64,000 nt of DNA, from assembly GCA_964016885.1 (NCBI GenBank), contig OZ024746.1, forward strand, positions 28,086,001-28,150,000, given 5' to 3'. Below the pieces are notes generated by a model. The model searched no databases, was not told where the DNA came from, and was given only the letters and a program-made list of their open reading frames with translations. Each line of letters begins with the position of its first letter. Positions within the stretch are counted from its first letter, which is position 1. The translations under genes and the position numbers were made by a program. Positions 27,105 to 61,827 of the stretch are shown here, in pieces. The DNA comes from Eledone cirrhosa. Its lineage: Eukaryota.

Positions 27105-27165
27105 ATATATCTATATATATATCTATATCTATATATATATCTATATATATGTAGGAACAAGTATG

Positions 27166-27261
27166 ACCCCGACGGCAGAGATCAAGCCGTTTCGATGGCT
27201 AATTCTGGACTAAATAAGAATTTTTAGCCTGGTAAATAAATAGCCGAACTTCTCAGGAGGT
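27166..27261 (-). ncRNA. Hammerhead-ribozyme-like motif (type I, variant core) in Penelope pseudo-LTR
   Basis: Reverse-complement copy of 29834-29929. Confidence 0.55.
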
Positions 27262-28167
27262 AATTCCTTATATGGGAAGATAGTAATTGTCAAAAGGATG
27301 GTCAAAATTTGTTGTAAAGAGAGATGATTCTATCATGGCATTTGGTGGGAGGTAGGGAGGGGGCTGAACAAGCCGGTAGAACAAAGAGGGAGTGGGGGAA
27401 ACCCAGTCAAGTGTTGAAAGTGAAATCTATACAGCAGATTCTAAAGATAGTGTATAGAAGGTCGAAAAAAGTGTACTGGAGAAGGGGAGGGGGAGTTGAA
27501 AGAATAGGTAAATCGAAAGGGAGTAAAATAAAAAAAAACATTATAAAAATAAGGAAATAAATATATTAAAAAAAAAAACAACAATTTCTGGTTACTACTC
27601 CATTTCCACAATCACCAAATCTCTCATTGGTGTTGCTAAGCTATAGAAAAGTTTAATAGGTGAAGAAAAATACTAATACGAGATTGTAGTGAAAGAATTT
27701 TATAAAGCCGGCTTTACAGGGGGTCTAACACCACTGCTATAGATAGTTAGTAATCAGCCAATGCTATCTTACAATGACAGGTTAATTAGTTGAGAACAAA
27801 AGTACTAAAATACTACTACAAAAATACTAATACAAAATATTAATTCAAAATACTAATACTAATACAAAAGTACCACTAAGAAATTTAGAAACCACAGAAA
27901 TGGAGCAGCAACCAGAAAGAAAACAATTTACTGGAGTCTAACACATCTGCTATAAAAAAGCGTAATCGGCCAGTTCTATCTTAAAATTAGGGGGGGGGGG
28001 GGGTACTGAGGCTACAGAGGACCGATGGGCTCCATCGAGGTAGGCGAAAAGGTGAAAAAAAGACAAGGGAGGAGATCTGGGGGTGGTGGGACTAGGAAGA
28101 GATGGGGGAAGAAGGAAATATAGAGGAAAAGATAAAAAAGTGGCAAGTGGGGTGTATCAGCCCTTGC

Positions 28168-29272
28168 CTACCCCCCCCCCCCCCCCGGGTCATTATGGGA
28201 TTTGAGGGCGAGATAAGTCCTACGCAATCTGTGTTTGCATGCGGTTACCAGTTCGTCTTTCTTGTTTAGGAGTTGGTCCTTCGAAAACAGCATTTGTAAT
28301 GTTTCCTCCGAGCATAAGTTACACGGACGGCGTCCTCCCGTGTAAGAGTTAGCTCTGGACAGTAAGCTCCAAGTGAGATTGTAGGTTATATTATTATCTT
28401 TGAGGTCCCAGATGAGGCCCGAAAGTGTAGTGGCATGACGCCGGGCTGGGTTTCGGAAAGTATGTTGGTGTAGGTAGAGCCGGGTCTTGAAGTCACAAGC
28501 GGTTAATCCTATATAAGCTTTGTTGGAGGTGTCCGTCCTCACGTTGCACTGGTAGATCACATTACGATCTTGGCATCTGTTGTTGAAGGGGCAAATGGAT
28601 CTATCAGGACAGTTACACCTCCTGGTCGGCTCTCCACTGCTGTCTAGGTTATTTCTTCCATAGAGGTTGAGTTTTTTGTTGTTAGAGGAGATGATGTTTT
28701 GTGCGAAGTTAGGTGTGGTGCTGTAGGAGAGTTTGATGGTGTTTTTGTTGATTATGTTGTGGTAGCGGTGTTGTAGTGGGAAGTGTTTTTCGAGGAGCCT
28801 AAAGAAGATTTTCCCGATAGGAGTTGTCATCTCGGCATTGTGGGGAGGATTGAACCACGTTACGTTGCGTGAGCGGCGGTGTCGCCTGCTGGTTCCGCTA
28901 ATGGAAGCTGGATGATAGGATATTTTCTCCCGGAAGCCACTCCGCTTGAGGGCCTGGTTATAATAAGGTGCATGTTCGTCGAATATCTGCTCATTAGCGG
29001 ATAAACGAGATATGCGGAGGGAGATGTTTTAACCAGGTTATTGGTGATGTTTCTAGGATCGTTCGACCGGCGGTGGATGTAATGCAGGTTGTCGTTTGGT
29101 TTCCTGTATGGGTAGTACAGATCATTATCGAGGTTAAGGGTAACGTCCAGGAAGTTTACTCGGGTTAGGGACGTTTGTAGGGTTATTTTAAATCCCGAGT
29201 CCCGGAAGAAGCTGATTAATTGTTTACGGACCCGGTCTGTACTACTGGGGTTGTACCGTTTGAGGGTGAGGA
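28168..29272 (-). pseudogene. Penelope RT C-terminus/thumb, linker and GIY-YIG endonuclease (one frameshift near 29030)
   Basis: Manual translation: ...RVNFLDVTLNL..YYPYRKPND.LHYIHRRSNDP [frameshift] ISLRISRLS...NVTWFNPP...KHFP...CNC....CP....C...VIYQC.......YIGLT..FKTR...H...CNLCSEE...LLNKKDEL...CKH. Confidence 0.92.
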
Positions 29273-29833
29273 GTAGTAGTAGTATTTTAGTATTTTTGTT
29301 CTCACCTTATTAACCTGTCATTGTAAGATAGCATTGGCTGATTACTAACTATCTATAGCAGTGGTGTAAAGCCGGCTTTATAAAATGCTTTCACTACAAT
29401 CTCGTATTAGTATTTTTCTTCACCTATTAAACTTTTCTATAGCTTAGCAACACCAATGAGAGATTTGGTGATTGTGGAAATGGAGTAGTAACCAGAAATT
29501 GTGAGGTTTTTTTTTGTTTTTTTTTATATATTTATTTCCTTATTTTTATAAGGGTCTTTCTTTTACTCCCTTTCGATTTACCTATTCTTTCGACTCCCCC
29601 CTCTCCTTCTCCAGTACACTTTTTTCGACCTTCTATACACTATCCTTAGAATCTGCAGTATAGATTTCACTTTCAACGCTTGACTGGGTTTCCCCCACTC
29701 CCTCTTTGTTCTACCGGCTTGTTCAGCCCCCCCCCCCTACCTCCCACCAAATGCCATGATAGAATCATCTGTCTTTGCAACACATTTTTTTACCAATCCT
29801 TTTGACAATTACTATCTTCCCATATAAGGAATT

Positions 29834-29929
29834 ACCTCCTGAGAAGTTCGGCTATTTATTTACCAGGCTAAAAATTCTTATTTAGTCCAGAATTAGTCGT
29901 CGAAACGGCTTGAGCTCTGCCGTCGGGGT
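29834..29929 (+). ncRNA. Hammerhead-ribozyme-like motif (type I, variant core CUGAGAA)
   Basis: Stem I ACCUC/GGGGU; CUGAGAA; stem II CGGCUA/UAGUCG; GAAA; stem III CGGC/GCCG; GUC triplet ending at 29924. G8 is replaced by A. Confidence 0.6.
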
Positions 29930-30043
29930 CATACTTGTTCCTATTACCCACTCTATTACCCTAAGTATTGAGTACTTTGGTGCGTTATGGTCCATCTGGT
30001 TCCTTACCACATTTCCTTCGTTATATATATATATATATATATA

Positions 30044-30830
30044 TATGAGGTGTGTCAGAAAACAAAACAGGACTGGGAACGCAAAAAAAAAAAAAATACA
30101 AACAAGTTTTCCCCTTCGAAATAATCCTCCGCGAGTCTAATGAACTTTCTCGACCTTTTCCGCCAATCTTCCATGCACTCCAGGACGGATTCTCCCGGGA
30201 TTCGCCACAGCTCCATCATCATAGCCCTCTATGGCTTCCACATCCACAACCCAAAACCCGTTCCCTAGTTGACTCTCTTGAGCTTATGGGGAAAAAAATA
30301 ATCACATGGAACCAGGTTGGGTCAGTAAGGGGGTTGCTTCAGTACGGCGATGTTCTTCTTGGCCAGGAAATGCCAGATGCTTTGACACCATCTTCGTTCA
30401 GATCTCCCGTCATTCATACCCAGCTCATTTGTAATCAGTTGAACAGTCAGCCAACAATCGCCACAGACCACCTGCCTCATGAGTTCAATGTTGACCTCAG
30501 TCATTTATGTTCAATGCCTTCCACTCCCGGGGTCATCTTCCATGTCCTTGCATCCCTCTTTGAACATTTTGTGCTACGCGGAAACCAATGAATATGACTT
30601 CATCTCAGCTATGTACACTTGCTGAAATATTCTGAGTGTTTCTGATGGACATTTCCCCAGCCAGATCAGAAACTTCAGGTTAATTTGTTGCTCTCTGCCT
30701 ATCGCTTAACAGCCTAAAATTGAAGAGCTGTTGACAAGAGCATGTGAAAAATCATACAATGGCTGCAGAAAGCTGAGGTCGTAAATATATACTCCCCAAA
30801 TATTACATCACATGGTGATGCAACCCATTA
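30044..30830 (-). mobile_element. Internally deleted, degenerate mariner (Tc1/mariner) transposon
   Basis: Minus strand encodes D.WLTVQLI.NELGM (HTH region) fused to FLAKKNIAVLKQPPY*PDLVPCDYFF..KLK (YSPDLAP.D motif) ... DYFEG. The TA-flanked end is TATGAGGTGTGTCAGAAAA. The right boundary is uncertain. Confidence 0.8.
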
Positions 30831-30859
30831 ATCCCTACCCTATTCATAGCTCACACAGT

Positions 30860-31121
30860 CCTGTTACTTGAAATGGTATGGACATGTGATGCGCATGGGG
30901 GACAACCGATGGGTGAAGAAGTGCCAGGAAGTCCCAGTGGAGGGAAGACGCAGTAGAGGTAGACCACGAAAAACATGGGCGGAGGTGGTGAGAGCAGACC
31001 TCAGATCTCTGAAACTCACGGAGGAGATGACGAAGGACCGTGACGGGTGGAGAGATGCTGTGCTGAATAGGACCCGTCCAACCCTTGCAAGCAGGGAAAA
31101 GTGGACGTAAAATGATGATGA

Positions 31122-31125
<4 letters not shown>
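30860..31125 (+). mobile_element. RTE LINE 3' fragment (second family)
   Basis: LKWYGHVMRM.D.RWVKKC....VEG.RSRGRPRKTW.EVV..DL ... DRDGWR, ending in a (GAT)n tail. Confidence 0.85.
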
Positions 31126-31175
<50 letters not shown>

Positions 31176-31647
31176 TTTTTAGATAAGAAACCAATTAAAA
31201 TAATGAAATGTTGAAACAGTAAATACACAAAAAAAAAGATTGGGAAAAAACAAAAAAAGAACAAGGAATGTAAGATTATAGGAAAAAATGTGTGTATGTA
31301 TATGTTTCTGTGTGTATATGTGTGTATCTATGTCTGTATATGTGCGTATCTATGTGTGTATATGTGTGTATCTATGTGTGTATATAAGTATGTGTATGCG
31401 TACGTGTGTGTGTGTGGGGGGGAGTACGTATTTGTATATATGTGTTTCTGTGTATGTATCTGTGCGTGAGTGTGTGTATATCTAGCTATGTGTGGGTATG
31501 TATAGTTGTGTGTATCTCTGTGTGTGTGTTGTGGAAACAGAACAGAAAGGAAACAATGTACAAATTACAACTGAAACATATATATATTGATATTATTACG
31601 TCTACGATTATTATCATTATTGTTGTAATCAGAGTTACGTCCCTTTA

Positions 31648-31772
31648 TTGTTTGAGTTCAAATCCCGCCGAGGTTAACTTTGCCTTTCATCCTTACTGGG
31701 TCGATAAAATAAAGTACCAGTAATACACTGGGATAATTGCTGGCCTTGTGCCAAAAGTAGAAGCAATTATTA
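31648..31772 (+). mobile_element. SINE family A copy (5' truncated)
   Basis: tgagttcaaatcccgccgaggttaactttgcctttcatcc...agaagcaattatt. Confidence 0.8.
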
Positions 31773-31779
31773 TTATTTT

Positions 31780-32425
31780 TGTTGTTAGTAGTAGTAAAGT
31801 CATTATTATTATTGTTATTTTTGTTATTATTGCTGTTGTTATTGTTATTGCTGTTGTTATTGTTATTACTGATGTAAATGTTATCATTATTGCTGTTGTC
31901 ATTGTTATTGCTGTTGTTGCTGTTGTTGTTGTTATCGTTATTGCTGTTGTTGTTATTGCTGCTGTTGTTATTGCTGTTGTTGTTATTGTTATTGCTGTTG
32001 TTATTGCTGTTGTTATCGTTATTGTTATTGCTGTTGTTATCGTTATTGTTGTTGTTGTCGTTATTGCTGTGTGTTGCTATTGCTGTTGTTGTTGTTGTTG
32101 TTATTGCTGTTGTTGTTATTGCTATTGTTATTGTTATTACTGTTGTTATTACTGTTATTGTTATTACTGTTGTTATTGCTGTTATTGTTATTACTCTTAT
32201 TGTTATTACTGTTGTTATTGCTGTTATTGTTATTATTGATGTTATTGTTATTACTGTTGTTATTGCTGTTGTTATTGCTGTTATTGTTGTTATTGCTGTT
32301 ATTGTTATTGCTGTTATTGTTGTTATTGTTATTGCTGTTATTGTTATTACTGTTGTTATTGCTGTTATTGTTATTACTGTTGTTATTACTGTTGTTATTG
32401 CTGTTGTTATTGCTGTTGCTGTTCT
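31780..32425. repeat. Cryptic trinucleotide repeat (TTG/TTA/CTG)n
   Basis: Generates the poly-L, poly-V/I/A and poly-C/Y ORFs. Confidence 0.95.
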
Positions 32426-32609
32426 TCTTCTATGTCACATTGATGTGTGATGAGAGAAGAAAGTAAAACTATTGTGAAACAATTAGGTTAATTCCATTTA
32501 TGATTGTTTTATGGCAGATTGTTTAAAATCTTTCTCTTTAGGTATTTATATAACACACATCTATATCACACAAACATTACATATACAGTGGAATGTGGCT
32601 GTGTGATGG

Positions 32610-32611
<2 letters not shown>

Positions 32612-32670
<59 letters not shown>

Positions 32671-32671
32671 C

Positions 32672-32704
<33 letters not shown>

Positions 32705-32991
32705 CATATATATACATATATACATATAAATATATACATATATACATATACATATATACATATAAATATATATATATATACATATAAATATATATATATA
32801 CATATAAATATATATATATACATATAAATATATATATATACATATAAATATATATATATATACATATAAATATATATATATACATATAAATATATATATA
32901 TAAACATATGCATATACATATATATATACATATACATACATATAAATATATACATATAAATACATATAAATATATACATATATACATATAA

Positions 32992-33024
<33 letters not shown>

Positions 33025-34416
33025 CATATAAATATATATATATATACATATATATATACATATATATATACAAATATATATATACAAATATATATATATA
33101 CAAATATATATATAAACATATATATATATATATAAACATATATATATATATAAACATATATATATATATAAACATATATATATATAAACATATATATATA
33201 CATATAAACATATATATATATAAACATATATATATACATATAAACATATATATATATAAACATATATATATATATACATATAAACATATATATATATATA
33301 AACATATATATACATATAAACATATATATATATATATAAACATATATATATAAACATATATATATATACATATAAACATATATATACAAACATATATATA
33401 TATACATATAAACCTATATATATATATATAAACACATATATACAAACATATATATATATACATATAAACCTATATATATATATATATAAACACATATATA
33501 CATATAAACATATACATATATACATATAAACATATATATATAAACATATGTATATATATAAACTTATATATGTATATATAAACATATATATATATATAAA
33601 CATATATATATAAAAACATATATATAAACATATATATATATATATATAAACATATATATATATATACATATAAACATATATATATATATAAACATATATA
33701 TATATATAAACATATATATATACATATAAACATATATATATATAAACATATATATATATAAACATATATATATATAAACATATAAACATATATATATATA
33801 TATAAACATATATATATATATACATATATATATATACATATATATATATATACATATACACATATATATATATATATACACATATATATATATATATACA
33901 TATATATATACATATACATATATACATATATATATATATACATATATAAACATATATACAAACACATATATATATATATACAACCACATATATATATACA
34001 TATATATATATAAACATATATATATATATACAAACACATATATATATACAACCACATATATATATACATATATATATATAAACATATATATATATATATA
34101 CAAACACATATATATTTACATATATATATATATAAACACATATATATATATATATACACATACATATATATATATATACACATACATATATATATATATA
34201 TATACAGATACATATATATATACACATACATATATATATATATATAAATACATATATATATATATATACATATATGCACACACACACACATATATATACA
34301 CACACATATATATATTTATACATATATGCACACGCACACAAATATATATACACGCACACATATATATATATATATATACATATATGCACACACACACACA
34401 CACACATATAATATAT
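32612..34416. repeat. ~1.8-kb compound (TA)n/TAAACA/TACA microsatellite
   Basis: Directly visible; source of the spurious 633-aa ORF. Confidence 0.95.
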
Positions 34417-34892: not shown

Positions 34893-35080
34893 TGGATTGG
34901 CAGTATCGGTAGAGGGTCGGGCGCCATGCTTTGACGCATAGAGTTACGGCCCTTGCCATTCTGAGTTCAAATCCCGCCGAGGTTAACTTTGTCTTTCATC
35001 CTTACGGGGTCGATAAAATAAAGTACCAGTAATGCACTGGGTAATTGCTGGCTTTGTGTCACAAAGTAGAAACAATTATA
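34893..35080 (+). mobile_element. SINE family A copy (full length)
   Basis: ggattggcagtatcggtagagggtcgg ... gagttcaaatccc ... agaaacaattat. Confidence 0.85.
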
Positions 35081-35179
35081 TAGCAGGTATTTGAAACATA
35101 ATCTAAAGGTTCTGACATAAAATTATGAAAACAGATTTTTAGATAAATATAAACACTTTGAAATATACATTTTTGTATC

Positions 35180-36164: not shown

Positions 36165-36196
<32 letters not shown>

Positions 36197-36199
<3 letters not shown>

Positions 36200-36430
36200 G
36201 GAGGTGAGTTTTATTGTAGTACAATAAAGCAATGCAGATATCGGATAAGAAGCACTCATATGTTGATTTAAAACTGCACTATCCACAAGTGTTTTTTAAC
36301 CTTCATATCATGTCCTCCTATTTTATCTGATGAAAACACAAATGTTATTGCATGATGATATTTGTTTTTGAAATGCGCATAATAAAATACATGGAACTCA
36401 TTTAACCATCTTTTGATCTTATATATTATA
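36197..36430 (+). mobile_element. Short non-autonomous Penelope-derived element carrying a hammerhead ribozyme
   Basis: A second copy lies at 61628-61827. Both are embedded in (TA)n, and the 5' part is the inverted tail of the element. Confidence 0.65.
36319..36389 (+). ncRNA. Minimal type I hammerhead ribozyme
   Basis: Stem I UAUUUUAU/AUAAAAUA (8 bp perfect); CUGAUGA at 36327; 16-bp stem II with one mismatch and a GCAU loop; GAAA at 36370; palindromic stem III AUGCGCAU; AUA triplet, predicted cleavage after 36381. Confidence 0.85.
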
Positions 36431-36554: not shown

Positions 36555-37679
36555 TTACATATATAGTAACAAAAAACTTTTGACTTTATTTTGTCATTAT
36601 TAGGATTGTCATTATTGTTGTTATTGTGTGGTTGTTGTTGTCATCATGATGTTGCTGTTGTCATTGTCATCGTCGTTGTTTCAAAACTGTTTTGTTTTTA
36701 TTGCTTCATTTGTTATGAAATTACTCAGCCATAATGAAATTGGCATGTTGTCGCTGTGTGATTCAACTAACACTCTCAAATACTATCCCTCTCACCACCA
36801 CCACCACCACCACCACCACCACCACCACCACCACCACCACCACCACCACCACTACTACTAATAATAATAATAATACTGCTGCTCTTACATGTTGAAGGAG
36901 TTGTGTGCAGTATGGTGTGTGAAGAGGGAAGCAATCTTGCCATAATCAGCAGAAATGATGAATATATAAACTGGAACACACCATTTTCCTCTCTAATTTA
37001 CTTTCTAAGCACGAGTGTGTGTGTATGTGTGTATACATATATATACATATATATATATTTATACCAAAGTTTATATACACATGTAAATACATTTATACAT
37101 ATATATATATATATATATACATGCGCATACACATATACACACACTACACAAATACATAAATATATACACCATAAGCGCACGCACACACATACATATATAT
37201 ATATAGAAGCGGGAGAAAAATATAATCACTTAGAAAGTTCTAGTTGTTAGATTGTAAAATCTCACACAATATACTCACAGATGAAAAAATATACGCACAT
37301 ATATTGACACCTACACACATACACACATACACACACACACCTCTATTCGTATTCCATATACATATTCCATATCCATATAGACACCTATATACATATTGTA
37401 GTGATACAACTGATTATTACATTCACACTCACAATTCTTTTTCTTCTTTCATAGATAGAGACACAAATAAGTAGATGGATGCTCCATCAGTTTTAACAAG
37501 GAGAAAGTAATCCAGTTGTTTGATCAACAAAACTATTAGTAATGCAGTATTCCATAGACAGTTGTAAGTTTAATGCAATCCTCACCTTGATTCAATGCGA
37601 CACTGAGATAAGGTTGGTTTTTAAATTACAGCCACAAGTTGGGTTTCTAGAGGGTTTCTGCCACTCATGTCATCATCAT

Positions 37680-38018
37680 TTTTATCATTTCATTTTACGT
37701 CCGCTTTTTCCCTGCTTGCAAGGGTGGGACGGGAACTGATTCTGGCTTGATTTCTACAGCTGGATGCCCTTCCTAACACCAACCTCATTTACAGTGAGTG
37801 CTGGGTGCTTTTTTGCCGTGGCACCTGCACGACCACTTTGCAGTGGAATGATATGGACCCCAGTCCCTACCATCTCATTTCTACAGCTGAGTAAACTGGA
37901 GCAATGTAAAATAAAGTGTCTTGCTCAAGGAAACAACACATCCCCCGGTCTGAGAATTGAACTCACAACCTTTCGATTGCAAGGCCAATGCTCTAACCAC
38001 GAAGCCATGTGCCTCCAT
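37680..38018 (-). mobile_element. tRNA-derived SINE family B (RTE-tailed)
   Basis: Near-identical to 43866-44207 and the reverse complement of 45151-45489. Confidence 0.88.
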
Positions 38019-38914
38019 GTATGTCTGAATATTGCACAAACACTATGTGATGAGGCTGGCCCTTTGAATTACAGCCACAAGCCTTCTGTTGGATTTCTAA
38101 AGGGTTTTTGCCATGTGTAACACAATACAAGTTTCTTAACATTTGACATCCAGCAATGATTTAGCAGAAAATATGTAAAAAGAAGTTTGTTAATTCAAAT
38201 ATTCATAGTATTATTATTGCAGAAAGTTCATTATGAAAGTTCATTATGAAAACTTGCTGTATTGATTTTAATGTGATTCAGTGATAGTGCTATTTTGGAT
38301 GTTTCAAGAGTATCTTGCTAATGCTAATGCAGTTTCATGTGGTACAAGATGTAAATATGGTGAAAGACCAGAGACTACAAGGATTGGAAAGGTCCCTTTT
38401 AGCCTTGAAGAGGACAACACAACATTGTTTGTGCTGACGAAATGATAAAATGCAACCAGTACACTGTTTAGTGGTTGGTGTTAGAAAGGGATTCTAGCTA
38501 TTGAAACCTTGTCATGTATGGGTGATGATGATGATGAACAAGAAATACGAGAATGCTAGTGTGAGGGTTTACAATTATTAGACCCAAATCTGGGAAAATG
38601 TCAGGCTGGTTCGCAGCATTAATATCCTATATTTAATGTGCGTACTAGTTATACAAACAAGGATGTTTGCATAGAGTTTTTGAAGTGTGTATTTAGCCAA
38701 TAAATATATCAGATAAATTAGTAAGCTTTCCATGGCAGCGGCTCCAATTATTTTTAATGGCTTAGGGGAAGGGCAGGGTTATACTTGTTTTTTTATTCTT
38801 TTACTGATTTCAATCATTAGGGTAAGGCCATGCTGGAGTAGTGTTTAAAAGGATTGTGTTGACCCCACTGCATATTTTTAAAAGTCTGGTACTTTTTTTT
38901 ATGTCACACTGCTT

Positions 38915-39100
38915 AATAATTGTTTCTACGTTAGGCACAAGGCCAGCAATTACCCAGTGCATTACTGGTACTTTATTTTATCGACCCCGTAAGGATGAAA
39001 GGCAAAGTCAACCTCGGCGGGATTTGAACTCAGATCGTAAAGGGACGTAACTATGCTGGAAAGCATGGCGTCCGACCCTCTACCGATACTGCCAATTCAC
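38915..39100 (-). mobile_element. SINE family A copy
   Basis: Matches 1-190. cactgcttaataat is present on both flanks (possible TSD). Confidence 0.85.
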
Positions 39101-41579: not shown

Positions 41580-41793
41580 AGTTTTATTATAGATGAGATT
41601 CTACAGGACTAGAACTGTTTCATTCATTAGAAATCATCAGATTTCTAATGAATGAAACAGTTGAAAAATCTGATGATTTCTAATGAATGAAACAGTTCTA
41701 GTCCTGTAGAATCTCATCTATAATAAAACTGTTATACTCTATGTATTGAGTACCTTACTTACTGTGGTTACCTCCGATTCAACCCGGAATAAC

Positions 41794-41794
<1 letters not shown>
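41580..41794 (+). mobile_element. Fold-back mini-element with hammerhead-like core and Penelope-type tail
   Basis: 41580-41644 is the reverse complement of 41666-41730. It contains CTGATGA..GAAACAG..CTGTA, then tattgagtac, and is flanked by (TA)n. Confidence 0.65.
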
Positions 41795-43530: not shown

Positions 43531-43865
43531 TATACTACACACACACACACACTCACACACAAATATATTGAATGTCTGATGTTCCAACATGGGGGGGGGG
43601 GTCACAATCAGAGTAGTACTCAATGCATGGGGCAGAGCATAGTGGTTATAAAGGAAGGTATAAACCCACCCTTGACACCTAGCAGTTTCAGCTGGTATGT
43701 GATCCCAAACATGAGGGACATGCCAGCTCAGTCAGTAGCAGTGTGGTGGGTAAGACAATGAAGGCTATCTTGATGGGCAATACAACAGATCTGGTTGACT
43801 CAACAGAGTGGTTGTCATTTATTGAAGTAAGCAGTTGCAGAATGAGAGAAGCAGCCAGGTGAATC

Positions 43866-44207
43866 ATCATCATTTCATCATTTCATTTTACGTCCACTTT
43901 TCCCTGCTTGCAAGGGTGGGACGGGAACTGATGCTGGCTTGATTTCTACAGCTGGATGCCCTTCCTAACACCAACCTCATTTACAGTGAGTGCTGGGTGC
44001 TTTTTTGCCGTGGCACCTCCACGACCACTTTGCCGTGGAATGATATGGACCCCAGTCCCTATCATCTCATTTCTACAGCTGAGTAAACTGGAGCAATGTG
44101 AAATAAAGTGTCTTGCTCAAGGAAACAACACATCACCCGGTCTGAGAATTGAACTCACAACCTTTTTATTGCAAGGCCAATGCTCTAACCACTAAGCCAT
44201 GTGCCTC
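43866..44207 (-). mobile_element. SINE family B copy
   Basis: tRNA-like head (tggcttagtggttagagc ... gagttcaattc), ccttgagcaagacacttt central domain and RTE-like tail. Confidence 0.88.
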
Positions 44208-44271
44208 ATAATGAAAAACTGAATATTTGCTGATGAAGGACTATCTAGTGAGTCACATATTTAGGTACTAC

Positions 44272-45150: not shown

Positions 45151-45489
45151 GGAGGCACATGGCTTAGTGGTTAGAGCATTGGCCTTGCAATCGAAAGGTT
45201 GTGAGTTCAATTTTCAGATCAAGTGATGTGTTGTTTCCTTGAGCAAGACACTTTATTTCACATTGCTCCAGTTTACTCAGCTGTAGAAATGAGATGATAG
45301 GGACTGGGGTCCCTATCATTCCACTGCAAAGTGGTCGTTGAGGTGCCACGGCAAAAAAGCACCCAGCACTCACTGTAAATGAGGTTGGTGTTAGGAAGGG
45401 CATCCAGCTGTAGAAATCATGCCAGAATCAGTTCCCGTCCCACCCTTGCAAGCAGGGAAAAGCGGACGTAAAATGATGATGATGATGAT
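45151..45489 (+). mobile_element. SINE family B copy (full length)
   Basis: ggaggcacatggcttagtggttagagcattgg...gtgagttcaat...ccttgagcaagacactttatttcacattgctccag...acccttgcaagcagggaaaagcggacgtaaaa(tga)n. Confidence 0.9.
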
Positions 45490-46649: not shown

Positions 46650-47530
46650 GGTGGTCTTGTTACATAAAGCCAGAAGTGGTCTTGTTGCATAGAACAAGGG
46701 GTGGTCTTGTTACATAAAGCCAGAGGTGGTCTTGTTGCATAGAACAAGGGGTGGTCTTGTTACATAAAGCCAGAGGTGGTCTTGTTGCATAGAACAAGGG
46801 GTGGTCTTGTTAGATAGAACCACGGGTGGTCTTGTTGCATAGAACAAGGGGTGGTCTTGTTACATATAACAAGGGTGGTCTTGTTACATAAAGCCAGAGA
46901 TGGTCTTGTTGCATAGAACAAGGGGTGGTCTTGTTACATAGAACCACGGGTGGTCTTGTTGCATAGAACAAGGGGTGGTCTTGTTACATATAACAAGGGG
47001 TGGTCTTGTTACATAAAGCCAGAGGTGGTCTTGTTGCATAGAACAAGGGGTGGTCTTGTTACATAGAACCACGGGTGGTCTTGTTGCATAGAACAAGGGG
47101 TGGTCTTGTTACATAGAACCGCGGGTGGTCTTGTTGCATAGAACAAGGGGTGGTCTTGTTAGATAGAACCACGGGTGGTCTTGTTGCATAGAACAAGGGG
47201 TGGTCTTGTTACATAGAACCACGGGTGGTCTTGTTACATATAACAAGGGGTGGTCTTGTTACATAGAACCATGGGTGGTCTTGTTACATATAACAAGGGG
47301 TGGCCTTGTTACATAGAACCAGGGGTGGTCTTGTTACATAGCACCAGGGGTGGTTTTCTTACATAGAACAAGGGGTGATCTTCTTACATAGAACAAGGGG
47401 TGATCTTCTTACATAGAATAAGGGGTGGTCTTCTTACATAGAACAAAGGGTGGCTTTGTTACACAGAACCAGGGGTGGCTTTCTTACTTAGAACCAGGGG
47501 TGTCTTGTACATAGAACCAGGGGTGGTTTA
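46650..47530. repeat. 25-bp minisatellite with alternating variants
   Basis: Units gtggtcttgttgcatagaacaaggg / gtggtcttgttacataaagccagag / ...acatagaaccacgg, about 35 copies. Confidence 0.95.
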
Positions 47531-48279
47531 ATTACAGAACGCCATATCGCACTACATTACTGCATGTGCCACATATACCTCCGCCACACCATGCTGCCAT
47601 ATATATATATATATTTGAAACCAAACTCTTAACATACTGGAACACATTAAACCACATTAGCAAGATATTCATGAAAAGTAAAAACCCTTCCATTATAATT
47701 TTATGCAAAAATGTATTTACTTATTTCGTAATTAGCAAGGAAGGGAAGGTTAGAGGTGATGATGCAGACCCCTTCCCCTAATGACTGGTGAAAGGAAGGG
47801 AGGAAAGAAGGTATCCTTAAACCAGAGAGGTGATTTAAGCAAACTAAAATACAGAAAAAAATAAAGGGGAATTGCCAGAATGTCAGACGAGGTACCTTGT
47901 GGTGTTTCTTCTGATCCTTTTTCCACTGTGACTACTTAGGTAGAAGACTTAATCTGTTACTCAGTTTAACACCACCTCGTGGCCCTTGGGTGGTAGACTT
48001 AATTTGTCATTCAGTTTAACACAACCAAATGGTCCTTGGGGGTCTTTAACAGAGTCCTTTTGTTTGCAAGTATTTGGGCCAGGTTTCCAGTTAAGGATAC
48101 CTTCTCTCTCCCTCTCACCAGCCTTGAAAACCCCAAGATGACCCAAAGAAACCCTCCTTTTCTACCTGACTAAACAACAACAACAAAGGCTGTAAACCCA
48201 TTTTCCTTGTTAAATCAGAGACGAGCCTTGTTGTGGCAGATGGTTTGCTTCATTGAGTTTTTAGTCATCTCATACAACA

Positions 48280-49085
48280 CACAGAGATACTGTGTACCTA
48301 CTGTAAACTGAACATACACAAGGGATACAGTGTACCAAACCAGAAATACAAAGGGATACAGTGTATCTATTCTAAACAAGCTACACACAGGGATACAGTG
48401 TACATATTGTAAACCTGATACACACAGTGATACAGTGTACCTATTCTAAACTGGATATGCACAGGGAGACAGTGTACCTATTGTAAAGTGGACACACACA
48501 GGGATAGTGTAGTTATTGTAAACCAGATACACAGAGGGATACAGTGTAGTTATTGTAAACCAGATACACAGAGGGATACAGTGTAGTTATTGTAAACCAG
48601 ATACACAGAGGGATACAGTGTAGTTACTGTAAACCAGATACACACAGGGATACAGTGTACTTACTGTAAACTAGATAAACAGAGGGATACAGTGTAGTTA
48701 TTGTAAACCAGATACACAGAGGGATACAGTGTACTTACTGTAAACCAGATAAACAGAGGGACACAGTGTACTTATTGTAAACCAGATACACAGAGGGATA
48801 CAGTGTACTTACTGTAAACCAGATAAACAGAGGGATACAGTGTACTTATTGTAAACCAGATACACACAGGGATAGTGTACTTGTAAACTGGACACACACA
48901 CAGATACAGTGTACTTATTGTAAACTGGATACACAGGGGATACAGTGTATCTATTATATACCTGATATACACAGTGGTACAGTGTACCTTTTGTAAACTG
49001 AACATACACAGTGATACATTGTACCTATTATAAATTACATACACACAGGGATACAGTGTACCTATTGTAAACTGAACACACACAA
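48280..49085. repeat. 37-bp minisatellite
   Basis: Unit gggatacagtgtacttattgtaaaccagatacacaga, about 21 copies, homogeneous in the centre and diverged at the edges. Confidence 0.95.
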
Positions 49086-49745: not shown

Positions 49746-49944
49746 TAGGAAATTTTTCCAGACCCCGACGGCAGAGCTCAAGCCGTTTCGACGGCTATTT
49801 CTGGACGTCCAGAAATAGCCGCCAAAACGGCTTGAGCTCTGCCATCGGGCTCTTGAACAATTTCCTATTACCCATTCTACTACTCTAAGTATTGAGTACT
49901 CTGGTGCATTATGGCCCACCTGGTTCCTTACCACACTCCCTTCG

Positions 49945-49946
<2 letters not shown>
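49746..49946 (+). mobile_element. Palindromic Penelope pseudo-LTR stub
   Basis: Loopless palindrome 49746-49867 centred on ggac|gtcc, made of the same sequence as 29885-29943, followed by the same tail as 29944-30022. Confidence 0.85.
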
Positions 49947-49975: not shown

Positions 49976-49980
<5 letters not shown>

Positions 49981-50240
49981 TGTTGTTTCCTTGAGCAAGA
50001 CACTTTATTTCACATTGCTCCAGTTTACCTAGCTGTAGAAATGAGATGATAGGGACTGGGGTCCATATCATTCCACTGCAAAGTGGTCGTGGAGGTGCCA
50101 CGACAAAAAAAAGCACCCAGCACTCACTGTAAATGAGGTTGGTGTTAGGAAGGGCATCCACCTGTAGAAATCAAGCCAGAATCAGTTCCCGTCCAACCCT
50201 TGCAAGCAGAGAAAAGCGGACGTAAAATGATGATGATGAT
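49976..50240 (+). mobile_element. SINE family B copy (head truncated)
   Basis: Matches 45225-45489. Confidence 0.85.
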
Positions 50241-50246
50241 ATATAT

Positions 50247-51585
50247 GATCATCATCATCATCATCATCATCGTTTAACGTCCATCTTCCACGCTTGCATG
50301 GGTTTGGACGGGAGGTTTCCCACTTGAGGCAAAATTTGTTGTCCTGCTCGTATAGGACTGTCTGGCAGGTTTTCTACGGCTGGATGCCCTTCCTAACACC
50401 AACCACGTTTACAGTGTGAACTGGGAGGGTTTTACTGTCTTACCTACACGGCCACATTACAGCGTGGACTGTGTGTTTTTTGTCGTGACACCTACACGAC
50501 CTCATTTGTTTCGGACTGGATGTTGTGGTACCAACATAACTTCACATTTAAGAGGTGGTGTGGATGGGGTGGGGGTAGTGGGACGGGGGGGGGGGATATT
50601 TTCTACTGACTGTAGGTTTCACTTTGTACTTAGGCAAGGCGGGTCTTCTGTATTACTATGTAGCGCCAAAGATCTCGGTCCAGTGACATTGTCTTGGAGA
50701 GGTGTAAGTGTGTGAGGTCGGAATTTATCAAGTCGTCCCAGGTTTTTCTGGGTCTGCCTACTCTGTGGCTACTGTCTATTTTTATCGCCCTGCACTTTTT
50801 TATACAGCTGTCGTCTTTCATGCGCATCACGTGACCGTACCAACGTAGTCTTCTCTCGAATAAACAACATCTGATCCCTCTTATTCCTAATTTCTCCCTT
50901 AGTTCGTTTATGCTTTGCCGTTCACGTATATTACTATTACACATCCAGCGGAGCATGCAAGCTTCGTTTTTCTCCAGTCTGCATATATCCTCTGCACACA
51001 ATGCCCAGGTCTCACTGCCATGTAACATTGCTGTTCGTATGCAGACATCATACAGCCTGCTTTCATTTTTAGAGAGAACTCTTTAGCGGCCAATAGTGGT
51101 ATAAGCTCTCTGAACTTTTTCCATCCCGTTCTGACTATAGCTACTGTACTTTCAGAGCACCCTCCTCCACTGCTGATTTTGTCACCCAGGTAACGGAAGG
51201 TGTCCACTATTTCTATAGAACCATCTGTGCAATGGAATGAGCTAGTATTCTGTGGGCACTTGCTGCTACTTATTGCACCAGAGCACAGGCCACATATAAA
51301 ATCTATATTCTTAGTTAGCTTACCTGTGATCCCACTACATCTTTTATGCCCCCATACTTTGCATTTGGGACATAAAATGGAGTTTCTGCCTACTCCTTTC
51401 CTACACACTGAGCATGGCCATTTCCCAGATGGGACCGGTGCCCTATTTTCCTTCCTACAAACTAGAACTTTAGTCTTAGACAAGTTAACTTTAAGGCCTT
51501 TTAATTCTAGGCCATGCTTCCATGTTTGGAATTTCTTCTCTAGTTCAGCCATTGATTCAGCTATGAGCGTTAGATCATCTGCATG
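50247..51585 (-). mobile_element. 5'-truncated RTE LINE (RT C-terminal half, frameshifted, plus 3'UTR)
   Basis: ADDLTLIAES...GLKVNLSKTKV, Cys/His insert, FRYLG, GWKKFRE, MLHGSETW, RLRWYGHVMR, GRPRKTW. One frameshift near 51060; (GAT)n tail. Confidence 0.92.
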
Positions 51586-54460: not shown

Positions 54461-54524
54461 TGATGATATATATGTAAAACATATATGTATGTATATATAT
54501 ATATATAAAAAACAAATGTGTATA

Positions 54525-55148
54525 TCTATATATATAAAAGCAAGTCGGTCTGTGTGTGTGTGTGTCTGTCTGTCTGTGTACAAATACTAGGCTCCTTTTA
54601 ACTTTTGAAATACTAGGACGATTTCAAACAAATTTGGCACACATGTTGCTTATATGCCAGAGCAGGTTTTGGACAAAAACAAATTTGAAAAAAAATCGAT
54701 ATTGGGGCCGAAAACATCGATGTTGTGTGTGTATCTCTCTGTGTACAAATACTAGGCTCCTTTTAACTTTTGAAGTACTAGGCCGATTTGCTTCAAGGAA
54801 TGATATTTCTATGTCCAGTGGATGGTCAACGTGGTAGTGGCAGCGCCATCTTATGCATAGGGTTTAGTCTACTGAAGGACATACAGTGCGTCTATTCCAT
54901 CTTTATCCCCTTACTCACACCTACTCCAGCAAGGCCGGACCTGAAATCATTCACGTCAATTAACTCAAGCTACCCCATGAATTGTTTTTATGTTGCCATT
55001 TATTTCACTCAATCATGTCACTGTACACCCATTTTGTTAAACTTTTTTTTACAATTACATTTCAATTCTTTGCTCAACCTTTGGCTCTCTTTATACGGAC
55101 AAACAGGCTGTCATTCATTTCCCGAGCAACGCCGGGTACATCTGCTAG
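54525..55148 (+). mobile_element. Non-autonomous Helitron
   Basis: 5' A|TCTATATATATAAAAG start; subterminal hairpin cccg-agcaacgc-cggg (55121-55136); 3' CTAG|T end; internal duplication of tgtgtacaaatactaggctccttttaacttttgaa. Confidence 0.8.
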
Positions 55149-56439: not shown

Positions 56440-56785
56440 AATAAGAAATAAAGGAATTCTGGAAATCTAGTAAAAGTAAAGTATTGTAATAAAAGTACTC
56501 TTGAAATCTCTAGAAAAATAAAGCAGTTTAATAAAAGAATTCTGGAAATCTCTAGAAACAGTAAAGTACTGTAATACAAAACTTAGTAAATCTCTAAAAA
56601 TGGTTAGACATTACAATAACAGTACTCTGAAAATCTTTAGAAACAGTAAAATAGTGTAATAAATGTTCTCTGGGAATTTCTAGAAATGGTTAGGAATTAC
56701 AGTAAAAATACTCTGGAAATCTCTAGAAATGTTAAGGTTAATATAATAAAGAAATTCTGGAAATCTCTAGAAATGGTAAAAATAA
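56440..56785. repeat. Degenerate ~40-bp minisatellite abutting the splice donor
   Basis: Recurring ctctggaaatctctagaaa...gtaata. Confidence 0.7.
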
Positions 56786-56794
56786 GCTACTCAC

Positions 56795-57291
56795 CTGCAT
56801 TTTCTCAAAGTCAAGACATGGTCTCTGAATGACAGAAATGTTCTCCAAATCCAGAGAATCAGAAGATGAGTTTAAACGATGTCGTTTCCTCGGTGAAATG
56901 GCACAGATACTGAGTGGGGGTCCATTTGGTACCAGAAAATTGGCTGATGAGGACCTCATTACTTTCTGGATACCTGATGGTGGAGTGGAGCTGAATAGAA
57001 TAGGTTTCGGATCAAGCATGAACTCCTTCACTTCCTCGTCAGAAGATCCGGCACTATCTGTAAAACAACAGCTATTATTGTTGCTGCCATTGTTGTTGTT
57101 GTTCAAATTATTGTTGCTATTAATATTGTTATTGTTGTTATTGTTAGAGGTGGTGGTGTTGTTGTTGTTGCAGATATTGCTGTTGTTGATTAGAATGCTG
57201 TTGTTATTGTTACTGTTGTGTAGGTTGTTGTTGTGGTTGTGGCAGTGTTGTTGGGAGTTGATGATGTTGCTGCTGTTGTTGTTGTTGCTGC

Positions 57292-57322
<31 letters not shown>

Positions 57323-58872
57323 ATCATTGCTGCCATTGGTACCACTACTGCTACTACGATGCTGTTGATTGTGGTTAATGTTGCTCTGTTGTTGATGATG
57401 CTGTAATATGTTGTGATGATTCTGCTGGTGATGATTGTGATGAAGAGGAGAATGATGTTGCTGATGTTGCTGCTGCTGTTGATGAGGGGGATGAAAGGAA
57501 TGGTATATGTTACACTTTGGATGGTTATTTTCAACAGAGTTACTGCTGTTGTCGCTGTTCATCTGTGACCACGTTCTCTTTTCTGGATGACTGTTTTCCT
57601 GGTTTATACATTCCAGTTCCTCCTCGGAGCTATGCTGGTCAACAACAGACAGTGGTGTAGTGGTTGTGGCTGTAGTGGTTGCTGTCGCCATCAATACAGG
57701 ACTAGGAGATTGAAGAGACACAGCTAAGCTCTGGTCCACTTCCTCTGGTGGTCTCGTTGTCAAAACTGTATCAACATTCCCTTGCTCCTCTCTCAAAGAT
57801 GTGATGAGCTCATTAGGTTTGTCAATACCGATTGGTTCTGGACTAATTATGTCTCCGTTGGTGACAGTAGCGATGTTAATATTAGAGTCAGGGACAACTG
57901 TAGGTATTGAAACCATATTAGACAGGTTCATGGCAGTTTCTTCACAGTTGACGGAGTTATTCAAACAGCTGCTCATAATGACTTCTTGATTTAAAGGTGA
58001 ATCAATTGCTTCAGAAGCATTATCGGGTGACACATGGTACTCCTGGTCTAATTGTTGGGCTGCTTCTGGCCTGGGTCCTTCTTTATTCTGTTCTTGTTGT
58101 TGTTGTGATGCTGGTCTTGATAATATATGTTGTTGTTCTTCAGAATTAAACAACGAAGATGGTGAGATGGAAAGTTGTGTATCTTTGTGTAAGGATATTG
58201 GATGTGTTATTGAAGGAGGAAGGACTGCCTGTTGGTTTGACGTTGGCTGAGGTGAAACAGCTGATGCTGCTGGTACTAGTGGCGGTAGTGGTACTACTGC
58301 TACTACTTCCACTGAAGAGGAGGAGGAGGTGGAGGAGGAAACTGCAGTTGGAATTACTATTTTGTTTTCTGATAACACATCTGTATGTTTCTGTTCACAC
58401 TCATACTGCTGCTGCTGTTGTTGAGAATGATGATGATTATGATGGTGAGAATGTAGCTGCAGCTTGGCCTGTTCTTCTACTTCCTGTTGTTGTTGCTCTT
58501 GTTGATAATCCTTTTGGCACTCATCTTCTGACAATTGCAACTCCTCCATTTTTACATCTTCCTCTGTGCTTAATGGTCTCTCCATAGTTGCTGTGTAATC
58601 TGACTGCTGCTCTTGCTGCTGCAACTGATGCTGTTGTTGTTGTTGTTGTAGTTGTGCTTGTTGTTGCTGCTGCTGTTGCAACAATTGTTGTTCTGGCAAA
58701 TTCTGTTGTTGATGTTGAAAATAGCTGTTATTGCAAGGTGGGAGTGACTGTGTTGTTGTTGTTGTTGTTGTTGTAGGTTGCTGTTGTGTGTTATGTAACT
58801 GTGGGTTAAATCTGCCATCATAGTTTCTGGCCCCTAAAACTTTCTCTTCTCGTTCGCCATCAATGGTTTCAG
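56795..58872 (-). CDS. Large internal exon of a Q/N/S/H-rich, probably disordered protein with a FAM53-like C-terminal motif
   Basis: Part of the 733-aa ORF. Acceptor TTAATTTTACAG| (phase 1) and donor ATGCAG|GTGAGT (phase 0). Ends PILFSSTPP...SPRKRHR...RPCLDFEKMQ. The exon is well supported; the family assignment is tentative. Confidence 0.85.
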
Positions 58873-59794
58873 CTGTAAAATTAATTGAAAAATATATAAA
58901 TACAAAAATAAATATGAAGAGAATGAATTTTATAATCAAAACAAATCAGTAATAACTGACAACAATTGTTAATAATTGAATGGTGTAAATGTAGAATAGA
59001 AAGATGACATCTCTAGTGCTGGTGTCACCATAACTTGTCTTGTAATGGTGCCATGATAAAATGCACCCAGTACACTCTGTAATGAAGACAACATAAGGTA
59101 ATGAGGACTGTTCATTTTGTTAAGGACCTGACAAAATCACAAATGCTGTTACAACGATAAAATACACCCAGTTTGCTCTGTAAAGTGCCAGTTCTATCAT
59201 TACCATTTGTTAAGGACATGACAAAATCACAAATGCTGGTACAACGATAAAATACACCCAGTATGCTCTGTAACATTCTATCATCACTATTTTATGCATG
59301 GTTTCCTGCTGGTATCTACTTTGAAATGTGCCATCCTGTGTCTATATTTAGAAATCCTTATCAAGAGAAAGGCAGGAAAATGGTGAAACTACTTGTTTGC
59401 AGCACTTCAACTTGTAAAGACATGTGTAAACCTTGGAAAAATTAGGAAGTGTTACTTATAAAAAATACCACCACTTCTACTGTTGCCACCACCACCACCA
59501 CCACCACCACCACCACAGCTGTTCTCATTGCTTCAGTAAATATATAACACAAGCAATTCCTGGAGGATAAAAAGAGGGAAGAGGGGAAATAGGGAGGGGG
59601 AGAAGAGGGGAAGTGGGGATGGGGAGGAGGGAAAGAGAGTAGGTGTGGAAGGGGCACAAAAATTAGGATGGAAAAACAAGAACTGTCTTAAAAATAAAAC
59701 AAACTAAAAACAATAAATGTAACATTAAATATCCAACAGGAAAATCTCATAATAGTGGTGTGGGAGTAGGGTGATGTAGGGGGGTAAACCAATA

Positions 59795-60190
59795 CTAATG
59801 GTTTCTGATTTTTACACAAGGCCAGTAATTTGAAGGGAAAGGGAAAGTCGTTTAAATCAACCCCAGTATGCTACTGGTACTTTATTTTATTGACCCAGGT
59901 AGGAGGAACCTCAAGAAAATTTGAATTCAGAACATAAAAAGCTGCACCTCTATGCAGTAAAGCATGTTGTCTGATGCTCTACTGATACTGCCAATCTATC
60001 AATGATAATAATAATTGTTTCTACTTTTGGTACAAGGCCAGCAATTATGTCAGTGCATTACTGGTACTTTATTTTATTGACCACGTAAGGATGAGAGTCA
60101 AAGTTAACTTCGGCGGGTTTGAACTCAGACTATAAAGAGATGTAACTCTATGCAGGAAAGAATGGTGTCCAACCCTCTACCGATACTGCC
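59795..60190 (-). mobile_element. Two tandem SINE family A copies
   Basis: 59795-60000 (diverged) and 60010-60190. Confidence 0.75.
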
Positions 60191-60219
60191 ATAATATAAT
60201 AATTCTATCTACATTTGTC

Positions 60220-60790
60220 AGAGAAGAAAGGAGCTGATCATCAGATCAGACCTAAGAAACAATGTTTTCATAGGCCATTCCATTGCTAATACAGTGGATG
60301 AGGTGCACCTCCTGACAGAAGAAAGGAGCTTATCATCAGATCAGACCTAAGAAACAATGTTTTCATAGGCCATTCCATTGCTGATACAGTGGATGAGGTG
60401 CACCTCCTGACAGAAGAAAGGAGCTTATCATCAGATCAGACCTAAGAAACAATGTTTTCATAGGCCATTCCATTGCTAATACAGTGGATGAGGTGCACCT
60501 CCTGACAGAAGAAAAGAGATGATCATCAGATGAGACCTAAGAAACAATGTTTTCATAGGCCATTCCATTGCTAATACAGTGGATGAGGTGCACCTCCTGA
60601 CAGAAGAAAAGAGATGATCATCAGATGAGACCTAAGAAACAATGTTTTCATAGGCCATTCCATTGCTGATACAGTGGATGAGGTGCACCTCCTGACAGAA
60701 GAAAAGAGATGATCATCAGATCAGACCAAGGAAATTTTGTTTCCATTAATCTTATCATTACTGATACTGAGGGTCAGTCACAACTCATGA
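60220..60790. repeat. 95-bp satellite
   Basis: gacagaagaaa..ag.t.atcatcagat.agacctaagaaacaatgttttcataggccattccattgct.atacagtggatgaggtgcacctcct, period 95 (60314, 60409, 60504...), ~6 copies. Confidence 0.95.
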
Positions 60791-61627
60791 CAGAAGGAGG
60801 TGGTCAGATTAAAACACAGAGTCTCTTAATCTGAAACAGATGCTGACTCCTTAACAGTTCCACCAATCCAACATCCCTGGACTGGTATTCTCTTCTCTGA
60901 ACAGTAAAAGAAAAACAATAATAAATGCTGTGTGTGTGAAATGAGGAATATTTGACTATTTCTAGGAAGGGAAGAGACAACAGAAAGACTTCCTATTTAG
61001 CTCTAATACGAAACAAAGAAAGAGTGTGTATGTGGAATATTTCATTACAATATAGTTTCACAATTGTCTACTTGTAACTCTGAACAATTGATGATTACAC
61101 AAGCCTTTCTTAGCATCATCATCACCAGCAGAGTCACTACCACGATAGTCATGATCAGTCAGCATCATAACTCAGAACAATTTGTGGTTACACAAGCATT
61201 TCTTACCATCATCATTACCATTATAGTCATCATTGTCATCACTCTCACCATTATCAACATAGCCATTAACACCATTCCACTTATTTTATTCCCATTCAGA
61301 TATATACACAATATCAATATCTATATATAGATAAGATTTCCTACTAATATTCTGTGAAATCTGAAATCTGTGGCCATTTACAACTAGATTCTCAGCTAGA
61401 GGGAGTTAAAGTGTTGTAAAAGTGATTGTATATTAGTGAATGAATGTTAGATTATTAACTAGAGATGGCACAAGCTTTTCAACAGTAATATATGTGGGCT
61501 GGTGGAGGAGTGCAGCCTCCAACTATATACAACTGTATGCATATATATATATACAATATATATCTATCTATATATATATATACACACACATATATATATA
61601 TACATGTGTATATATGTGTGCATATAT

Positions 61628-61827
61628 GTAGGAGGTGAGTTTTATTGTAGTGCAATAAAGCAATGCAGATATCGGATAAGAAGCACTCTACAGTTTGTAG
61701 GACTGGAGTATACATAATATATAAGAACAAAAGATGGTTATTATTGCATGATGATATTTGTTTTTGAAATGCGCATAATAAAATACATGGAACTCTTTTA
61801 ACCATCTTTTGTTCTTATATATTATGT
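61628..61827 (+). mobile_element. Second copy of the 36197 element, fold-back form, 3' half of the hammerhead only
   Basis: acataatatataagaacaaaagatggtta (61712-61740) is the reverse complement of 61799-61827. ttgtttttGAAAtgcgcaTAataaaata is retained and CTGATGA is lost. Confidence 0.7.

Follow-up and report, generated by a model that had tools for sequence, protein, structure and literature searches.

Five head-to-head insertions of Penelope-like elements in a 64,000-nucleotide (nt) window of the Eledone cirrhosa genome (contig OZ024746.1, positions 28,086,001 to 28,150,000; positions below count from the start of this window) are most readily explained as truncated copies of Hydra-type elements, formed when both strands of a TA repeat are cut, priming occurs at two sites set by two RNA hairpins, and the short copies end at the RNA cap. 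We give this reading a probability of roughly 0.6. The genome, of 3.0 Gb, contains abundant TA and CA microsatellites, and inspection of the window sequence found all five insertions in TA-rich surroundings. Elements 1 (27152 to 30022) and 4 (49746 to 49946) belong to family A, elements 2 (36197 to 36430) and 5 (61628 to 61827) to family B, and element 3 (41580 to 41794) to family C. Each insertion carries two opposed arms and a single tail. Over their last 320 nt, the three families showed no significant likeness, save for an 18-nt stretch shared by A and C around the tail motif (E 0.003). The insertions, the unrelatedness of the three families, and the common architecture had been described in an original prediction made from the window alone, and on these points it was borne out.

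Under the proposed mechanism, the element protein would cut both strands of a TA repeat and bind the two RNA hairpins as a dimer, one subunit each. Both cut TA ends would prime a few bases upstream of the hairpins, both complementary DNAs (cDNAs) would be extended 5'-ward on the RNA to end at or before the cap, and host end-joining would link the two cDNA ends head to head. Copying of the stretch covered by both cDNAs could involve displacement or two sister RNAs. Priming on the 5' hairpin pair of an ordinary capped transcript would give stubs only, and long copies would need a template with hairpins behind the open reading frame (ORF), that is, a tandem read-through or a circle. The tail would then be the distance between two landing pads, the inverted repeat the second cDNA, and the stubs strong-stop-like run-offs at the cap. 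In its broadest form, which we put at even odds, a bulged hairpin pair found across the Hydra clade would provide the two landing pads for a dimeric, telomerase-related reverse transcriptase (RT)-endonuclease (EN) that primes both ends near the cap, and only tandem or circular RNAs would give full copies.

The stub arms stopped at one base per family, namely, at -138 from the outer end in family A, at -257 in family B, and six nt before the hammerhead core in family C; the ribozyme cut sites lie at -98 (A) and -134 (B). Among 30 family A tail arms, 19 ended at -129 to -146 and two at the ribozyme cut, and 12 of 21 family B inverted arms ended at -255 to -260, with two B arms ending within 4 nt of the cut. 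When arms reaching within 2 nt of the stop were considered, 82 of 153 (A), 22 of 31 (B), and 32 of 53 (C) ended from 2 nt short of it to 4 nt past it. The breakpoints, which had been proposed for mapping against the ribozyme cleavage site, fall at the likely capped start and not at the cut. In the window, the tail-less arm of element 2 ended at the stop base (+1) and both arms of element 4 at +2, element 3 was about 6 nt short, element 5 stopped earlier, and element 1 ran past.

The first non-genomic base at +1 was G in 27 of 41 cases, compared to 37 of 194 elsewhere. After removal of bases that the partner arm or element could supply, an untemplated G was present at +1 in 14 of 19 cases and elsewhere in 13 of 87 (p 1e-6). 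Family C copies abutting TA carried G at 39, C at 17, T at 19, and A at 9 of 84 distinct loci, counted by hand among the 100 listed of 283 matches. At locus L300, the extra base was found on both arms. TATA-like boxes were located about 30 nt upstream of the stop in family C (TATAAATA) and in young family A (TATTTAAATA). Because each family has a single stop base, often with an untemplated G and, in A and C, preceded at about 30 nt by a TATA-like box, the stop is likely the RNA cap, i.e., a capped transcript start. L1 insertions are reported to carry an additional G where the 5' end was capped (PMC11702581).

An unlikely alternative retains two-site priming and lets the stubs end by stalling at the hammerhead helices, or after a set distance, instead of at the cap. 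The family A stops inside stem II and the family C stops at the foot of stem I, both about 60 to 70 nt from the inner start, suit it, as does the spread of the A stops over about 15 nt. In family B, however, the stops lie some 60 nt upstream of the hammerhead, at a distance of about 170 nt from the inner start, and stalling leaves the extra G and the TATA-like boxes unexplained. Long arms also cross the site scarless, with no strand-transfer scar or inserted base at +1 among 100 of 2054 matches listed and no scar in 95 local long arms.

The inner arm ends were fixed as well. In family A (30 tail-only matches, 7 without a called partner), 21 of 23 pairs had a tail-less arm starting at -76 to -80, counted from the outer end; the two exceptions were an internal match and a tandem. 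In family B (30 tail-only matches, 5 without a partner), 21 of 25 pairs had this start at -81 to -84, and the four exceptions were matches inside long arms. A pile-up of B tail arms at -113 was discarded, being mostly query start plus microhomology, and the tail-only search gave a wider spread. The first hairpin lies immediately beyond the inner end of the arm, and a second was found 5 to 9 nt past the outer end in full-length copies of family A, family B (L037; also L305/L306), and a further family, E (L288). In a metagenome scan, three of seven loci, all of one family 36 to 37% identical to A (L281 to L283), were informative and had the second hairpin about 2 nt past an insertion end; the other four were decayed, with no clear hairpin at the expected place. 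By eye, Hydra-1_Ajap shows two hairpins at its 5' end, and Hydra-2_Ajap and Hydra-2_Amil each show one near the 3' end. For family C, none of the four matches of a pattern search was a full-length copy with a second hairpin.

Two unusual copies were seen. A family C insertion (L277:1370-1700) carries the tail three times head to tail, which suggests repeated re-priming or slippage. At the L130 junction, a 170-nt filler between the arms reproduces the end of the tail, hairpin 2, and the beginning of the ORF, which is RNA downstream of the outer start.

The original prediction had singled out the tail hexamer GAGTRC as a possible cis signal. The 10-mer TATTGAGTAC occurred four times in the window against 0.33 expected, and the hexamer by itself is no signal because it occurred 31 times against 37.5 expected. 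The signal probably does lie in the tail motif, as a bulged hairpin occurring twice: GAGTRC forms the 3' strand of a stem-loop of the form RCTC-stem-loop-stem-UN-GAGY. Motif-blind mining of 80 evenly spaced 10-kb stretches (800 kb) for the pattern TA-arm-arm-tail-TA gave 121 matches, 79 with tails of at least 20 nt and 42 with tails of at most 13 nt, the latter being excluded; family A tails numbered 35 in the 800 kb sampled. The 79 tailed elements formed 29 clusters, 10 of which had the strict hairpin, starting 2 to 14 nt past the inner arm end, compared to 4 of 5800 shuffled tails and 1 of 29 on the reverse strand. Three further clusters had near-variant hairpins by eye. The first outer pair was A-U in seven and G-C in three cluster representatives. 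In 37 elements selected by sequence motif only, inner stem positions 1 to 3 paired in 37, 36, and 34, with 13 different triplet pairs, and slid-register controls gave 21/14/7 and 2/36/4. A genome-wide search for hairpin plus TA (73,286 versus 446 control matches) was not used as evidence because it is circular, its counts overlap, and two families dominate it.

Equally unlikely as stalling is that the hairpin acts as DNA, in endonuclease recognition or resolution of intermediates, or has another RNA role, such as translation or packaging, with the end positions being a by-product. A DNA role would accord with the Drosophila virilis tail, which the endonuclease required to recognize plasmid DNA (cited in PMC11167929), and with PMC8557442, which ascribes the tail to endonuclease resolution, and another RNA role would accord with the location of the hairpins in the 5' leader of the ORF. 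In contrast, the G.U pairs and the one-sided 2-nt bulge fit the sense RNA strand, the reverse strand giving the single match already mentioned, and in families A, B, E, and the metagenome family a separate hairpin accompanies each of the two ends, both at a comparably short distance.

The two arms of an insertion resembled each other in length and in alleles. Both arms were short in 84 pairs and both long in 13, with four mixed pairs among 101, and subfamily alleles agreed between arms in 41 of 41, 41 of 43, and 42 of 43 cases (30.8, 16.2, and 14.8 expected); an ungapped arm comparison was inflated by indels. The matched lengths and alleles therefore suggest that each event draws on a single RNA, or a single RNA class, from which we infer that both arms were copied. 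Long arms cross +1 and can exceed one 3545-bp unit, and tandem arrays exist, which would fit a read-through or circular template. Five family A units were found in tandem at G000:C1:91473203-91487407 (L293) with a spacing of about 3543 bp, two of which were checked and were about 99% identical to the L120 protein. In three cases (L267, L273, and L276), some long arms ended at nearly the length of one full unit, which may hint at a circular template.

Several results weigh against two-site priming on a capped RNA. The excess of G was weaker in family A, where copies abutting TA carried G at 16, C at 8, A at 5, and T at 56 of 85 distinct loci (counted by hand among the 100 listed of 1203 matches), and 5 of 12 filtered A stops carried C. 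A TATA-like box at -30 was missing from family B, the choice of the +1 bases followed inspection of the data, and structure could contribute to the A and C stops, which lie in or at hammerhead helices. The strict hairpin was absent from 19 of the 29 clusters, and it was not clear by eye in Hydra-1_Obim, Hydra-1_Crog, and Hydra-1_Amil. The elements counted for stem pairing are non-independent, with 12 of 37 carrying the triplet pair of family A, and single hairpins fold weakly (z -0.3 to -1.8), the predicted fold often missing the bulged register. Allele agreement could partly reflect later homogenization of the palindrome or a single active source per cell, and the match of long with long and short with short arms is partly confounded by the ORF-selected loci, which is a caveat of sampling. 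Finally, the evidence for the cap, for the promoter, and for hairpin binding comes entirely from DNA.

The common mechanism originally put forward was snap-back or template-switch integration. In snap-back or self-priming, one cDNA (or antisense RNA) would fold back and be copied into the inverted arm; self-priming on an antisense template has been proposed for palindromic junctions (PMC3846280). We consider it quite improbable here. Perfect palindromic junctions do exist, as in element 4 (center 49806/49807), the arms share alleles, and their ends lie within 3 nt of each other in 24 of 64 (A), 5 of 12 (B), and 15 of 33 (C) pairs. The tail-less arm, however, outreaches the tail arm 5'-ward in elements 1, 2, and 5 and, by more than 20 nt, in 9 of 25 family B pairs (one complex). 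Since a folded-back cDNA cannot supply the extra 5' sequence of the tail-less arm, snap-back is contradicted for asymmetric copies. Either arm can be the longer one, a palindrome is perfect where the two arms end at one and the same base, and snap-back gives no reason for the fixed inner end and the hairpin beside each end. Very improbable is a self-copying non-autonomous family with a master hairpin copy, be it a miniature inverted-repeat transposable element (MITE), a short interspersed element (SINE), or a retrozyme, as the many copies of about equal length might suggest: the junctions are copy-specific, with microhomology or templated filler, the ends are asymmetric, all three families run into Hydra-type ORFs, and no transposase link was seen. 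The stubs, which had been described as hairpin mini-elements, are independent abortive insertions because their junctions vary from copy to copy.

The Penelope-like origin was supported, each of families A, B, and C being tied to an endonuclease with Hydra-clade motifs. A genome search with the element 1 protein gave 72,483 candidates, with open frames of up to about 790 amino acids (aa) among the 150 scored. In the frames of family A of about 790 aa, YRDD and VIY...YIG were present, i.e., RT followed by a C-terminal GIY-YIG EN in one ORF, as were RWR, DKT, CxCX5C, CxxC, and CxH, and CCHH was absent. The RT-EN ORFs of family B carried RWI and DKT. One head-to-head copy of family C runs into a Hydra-type ORF by way of a long 3' region rich in microsatellites; this copy comprised the EN end only, and RWK/DKT was scored in A and B. 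A CxCX5C linker without CCHH between GIY and YIG was found in families A, B (L238), C (L294), E, and M. The Hydra linker was present in all four of the mined hairpin-bearing families for which an ORF lay within reach (A, B, E, and M), as well as in C, and two ORF-bearing families lacking the hairpin had other features, one a Neptune-type linker and CxxC and the other a different EN. Protein motifs were read by eye, the clade assignment rests on them, and a Pfam search of three proteins matched no family.

Several other assignments were rejected. Neptune or Nematis membership of A, B, and C failed on the absence of the CX2-5CxxC linker and the EN CCHH, both of which were seen in a short-tail family lacking the hairpin (L231), and the ORF at L288 belongs to family E and not to family C. 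MITEs or DNA transposons with terminal inverted repeats did not fit the one-sided tail, the variable junctions, and the link to RT-EN ORFs. A retrozyme not derived from long terminal repeats (LTRs) did not fit either; such non-LTR retrozymes consist of non-coding tandem units with a type I hammerhead in each (bioRxiv 2026.07.22.740005), whereas the A, B, and C stubs are head-to-head and continuous with ORFs.

By their motifs, the elements extend the membership of the established Hydra clade within the Penelope-like elements with a C-terminal EN (EN+). For this clade, Craig et al. 2021 (PMC8557442) report RW(R/K), DKT, CxCX5C, CxxC, and CxH motifs, no CCHH, a hammerhead in the pseudo-LTR (pLTR), (TA)n targets, partial tandems, an adjacent inverted truncated copy, and a 30- to 40-bp tail at one end. 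Because it is published there, the architecture originally predicted is a known one, and the present elements share the motif set, hammerhead, (TA)n, tandems, 5'-truncated inverted partner, and tail at one end. They differ in tails of 65 to 180 nt and in a family A unit of 3545 bp, compared to generally under 3 kb, and neither tail hairpin nor cap stop is described in the available text of that paper. L231, L233, and other short-tail clusters represent non-Hydra Penelope families with the same head-to-head, one-tail layout; their tails of 22 to 65 nt lack the hairpin, and they may use another signal. At L203, L222, and L241, a family with a hammerhead-like motif and both arms ending at the same base (tail-less) was found nested in the TA tract of a family with a 60-nt tail.

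Hammerheads had been predicted in all five insertions, whole or partial. By motif and fold, they are whole in elements 1 and 2 and partial in elements 3, 4, and 5: element 3 is without the 5' strand of stem I, and elements 4 and 5 retain the 3' half only. An Rfam scan of the window detected none among 145 matches at E ≤ 1, the matches being only microsatellite matches to microRNA (miRNA) models, and CTGANGA showed no excess in the window (28 versus 25.7 expected). Cleavage activity is a prediction from motif and fold. Both arms of element 1 contain the family A core CUGAGAAG with a C3.A8 mismatch (29839 to 29846), and the young subfamily, e.g., L263, has U3-A8; the C3.A8 hammerhead is likely impaired, yet its subfamily spread. 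Minimal and U3-A8 hammerheads are described, and circular templates proposed, in PMC4209133. The predicted targeting to (TA)n was clear at the tail end, where a TA 8-mer followed within 12 nt in 30 of 30 (A), 29 of 30 (B), and 29 of 30 (C) genome copies, 88 of 90 altogether, compared to 919 of 7921 random positions (11.6%).

The closest biochemical parallel is PAc, Poseidon of Anolis carolinensis, for which Frangieh et al. 2024 (PMC11167929) report cutting and extension of both strands in vitro, two internal start sites flanking the tail, uncleaved RNA as the template, and a predicted dimer. Cutting and extension of both strands, two internal starts bounding the tail, the uncleaved RNA template, and the predicted dimer are shared with the present model. 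PAc differs in belonging to another clade and in having its starts in an AC-rich stem-loop inside the ORF, and the available text of that paper describes no repeated bulged hairpin downstream of the starts and does not address the ends of short cDNAs. L1 twin priming shares the priming of a second target end inside the RNA, leading to inversion, as well as the cap-derived extra G and junction microhomology, but its second site is variable and near the first cDNA end (PMC11702581). Unlike in L1, both sites here are fixed and near the RNA 5' end, with arms overlapping widely. In hepadnaviruses, the reverse transcriptase interacts with epsilon, a bulged stem-loop close to the 5' end of the RNA, and retroviral strong-stop DNA is a short cDNA that runs to the cap. 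These are analogies only, with no claim of homology, since priming here would be by target DNA, and the strand-transfer scar of strong-stop synthesis was not seen at the cap in the long arms checked.

The twin hairpin and the cap stop appear to be unpublished mechanistic additions to a published architecture. A literature search, which covered papers other than subscription ones such as Arkhipova 2006, found no conserved tail hairpin or cap-terminated stubs in Penelope elements, and the available text of PMC3681739 contains nothing on start sites. PMC8557442 lists how the Penelope tail and inverted repeats arose among the questions still to be answered; a covarying repeated hairpin beside both ends, together with a defined stop base, makes this testable. 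If true, the proposed mechanism would identify a minimal cis signal used by a telomerase-related enzyme that targets microsatellites and would account for a very common repeat of this genome. Such stubs are liable to be misannotated as MITEs or miRNA hairpins.

Element 1 comprises a tail-less arm of about 2.1 kb and a tail arm of 747 bp. Its inverted arm includes the frameshifted 3' part of a Hydra-type ORF (28168 to 29306, minus strand; 92% to the L120 protein), with the RT C terminus, the CxCX5C linker, and GIY-YIG without CCHH. The type I hammerhead spans 29834 to 29929 on the plus strand (core at 29839, GAAA at 29902, no Rfam match), with a predicted cut after 29924 and a mirrored core at 27249 on the minus strand. 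The likely family A transcription start (+1 A), placed by the stub-arm pile-up, corresponds to 29884 (plus strand), beyond which element 1 passes. Tail hairpin 1 (29950 to 29973, plus strand; ACTC/GAGT with a UU bulge) lies about 6 nt beyond the inner start, which falls at about 29944. In element 4, the hairpin is at 49874 to 49897, and both arms ending at the same base, +2, give the palindrome.

Element 2 consists of a tail arm on the minus strand (36197 to 36257) and a tail-less arm on the plus strand (36258 to 36430) that begins at the likely +1, possibly with 3 nt of microhomology, and carries the whole hammerhead (plus strand; CUGAUGA at 36327, GAAA at 36370). The predicted pattern of one terminal copy plus an inverted copy held for elements 1, 3, 4, and 5 and fails in element 2, an inversion without overlap, because its tail arm starts inside the motif, within the hairpin. 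Element 3 has its inverted arm at 41580 to 41640, followed by templated filler and the tail arm from 41670, with the hairpin at 41736 to 41751. The tail arm of element 5 (about 113 nt) and its hairpin (61685 to 61709) are on the minus strand. Its inverted arm reaches farther and carries the partial hammerhead, both arms end before +1, and a target duplication of 12 to 14 bp is present (61614 to 61627 and 61824 to 61837).

Two tail-only motifs noted originally, near 15065 (minus strand) and 62317, proved to be real. The first belongs to a truncated tail of a fourth family, H (14998 to 15100, minus strand), located between TA tracts. A genome search gave 1138 candidates for this family, which was outside the motif-defining set and fits the hairpin motif, other copies having the whole hairpin (ACTC TGGA ... 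TCCA UU GAGT). Copies L326 to L334 showed the hairpin and TA at the tail end, with no hammerhead core or inverted arm in the 230 nt upstream by eye, and several copies have nearly the same starting base, some 110 nt upstream of the motif. Family H is possibly a non-coding passenger. The second is a diverged tail remnant with the hairpin 3' strand (62296 to 62372, plus strand), 76% identical over about 46 nt to tails at loci L062 and L024, with a TA tract on its 3' side only.

The window also contains tandem arrays with units of 95 bp (60222 to 60796), 25 bp (46650 to 47527), and 37 bp (48277 to 49072), as well as a 1.8-kb TA tract (32614 to 34385). Each 95-bp unit carries CTGATGA on the minus strand, without an Rfam hammerhead match. 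Two SINE-like dispersed repeats were found, the first at 1 to 187, 23671 to 23857, 31630 to 31772, 34893 to 35079, 38915 to 39099, and 60010 to 60191 and the second at 37670 to 38033, 43864 to 44227, 45151 to 45489, and 49977 to 50252.

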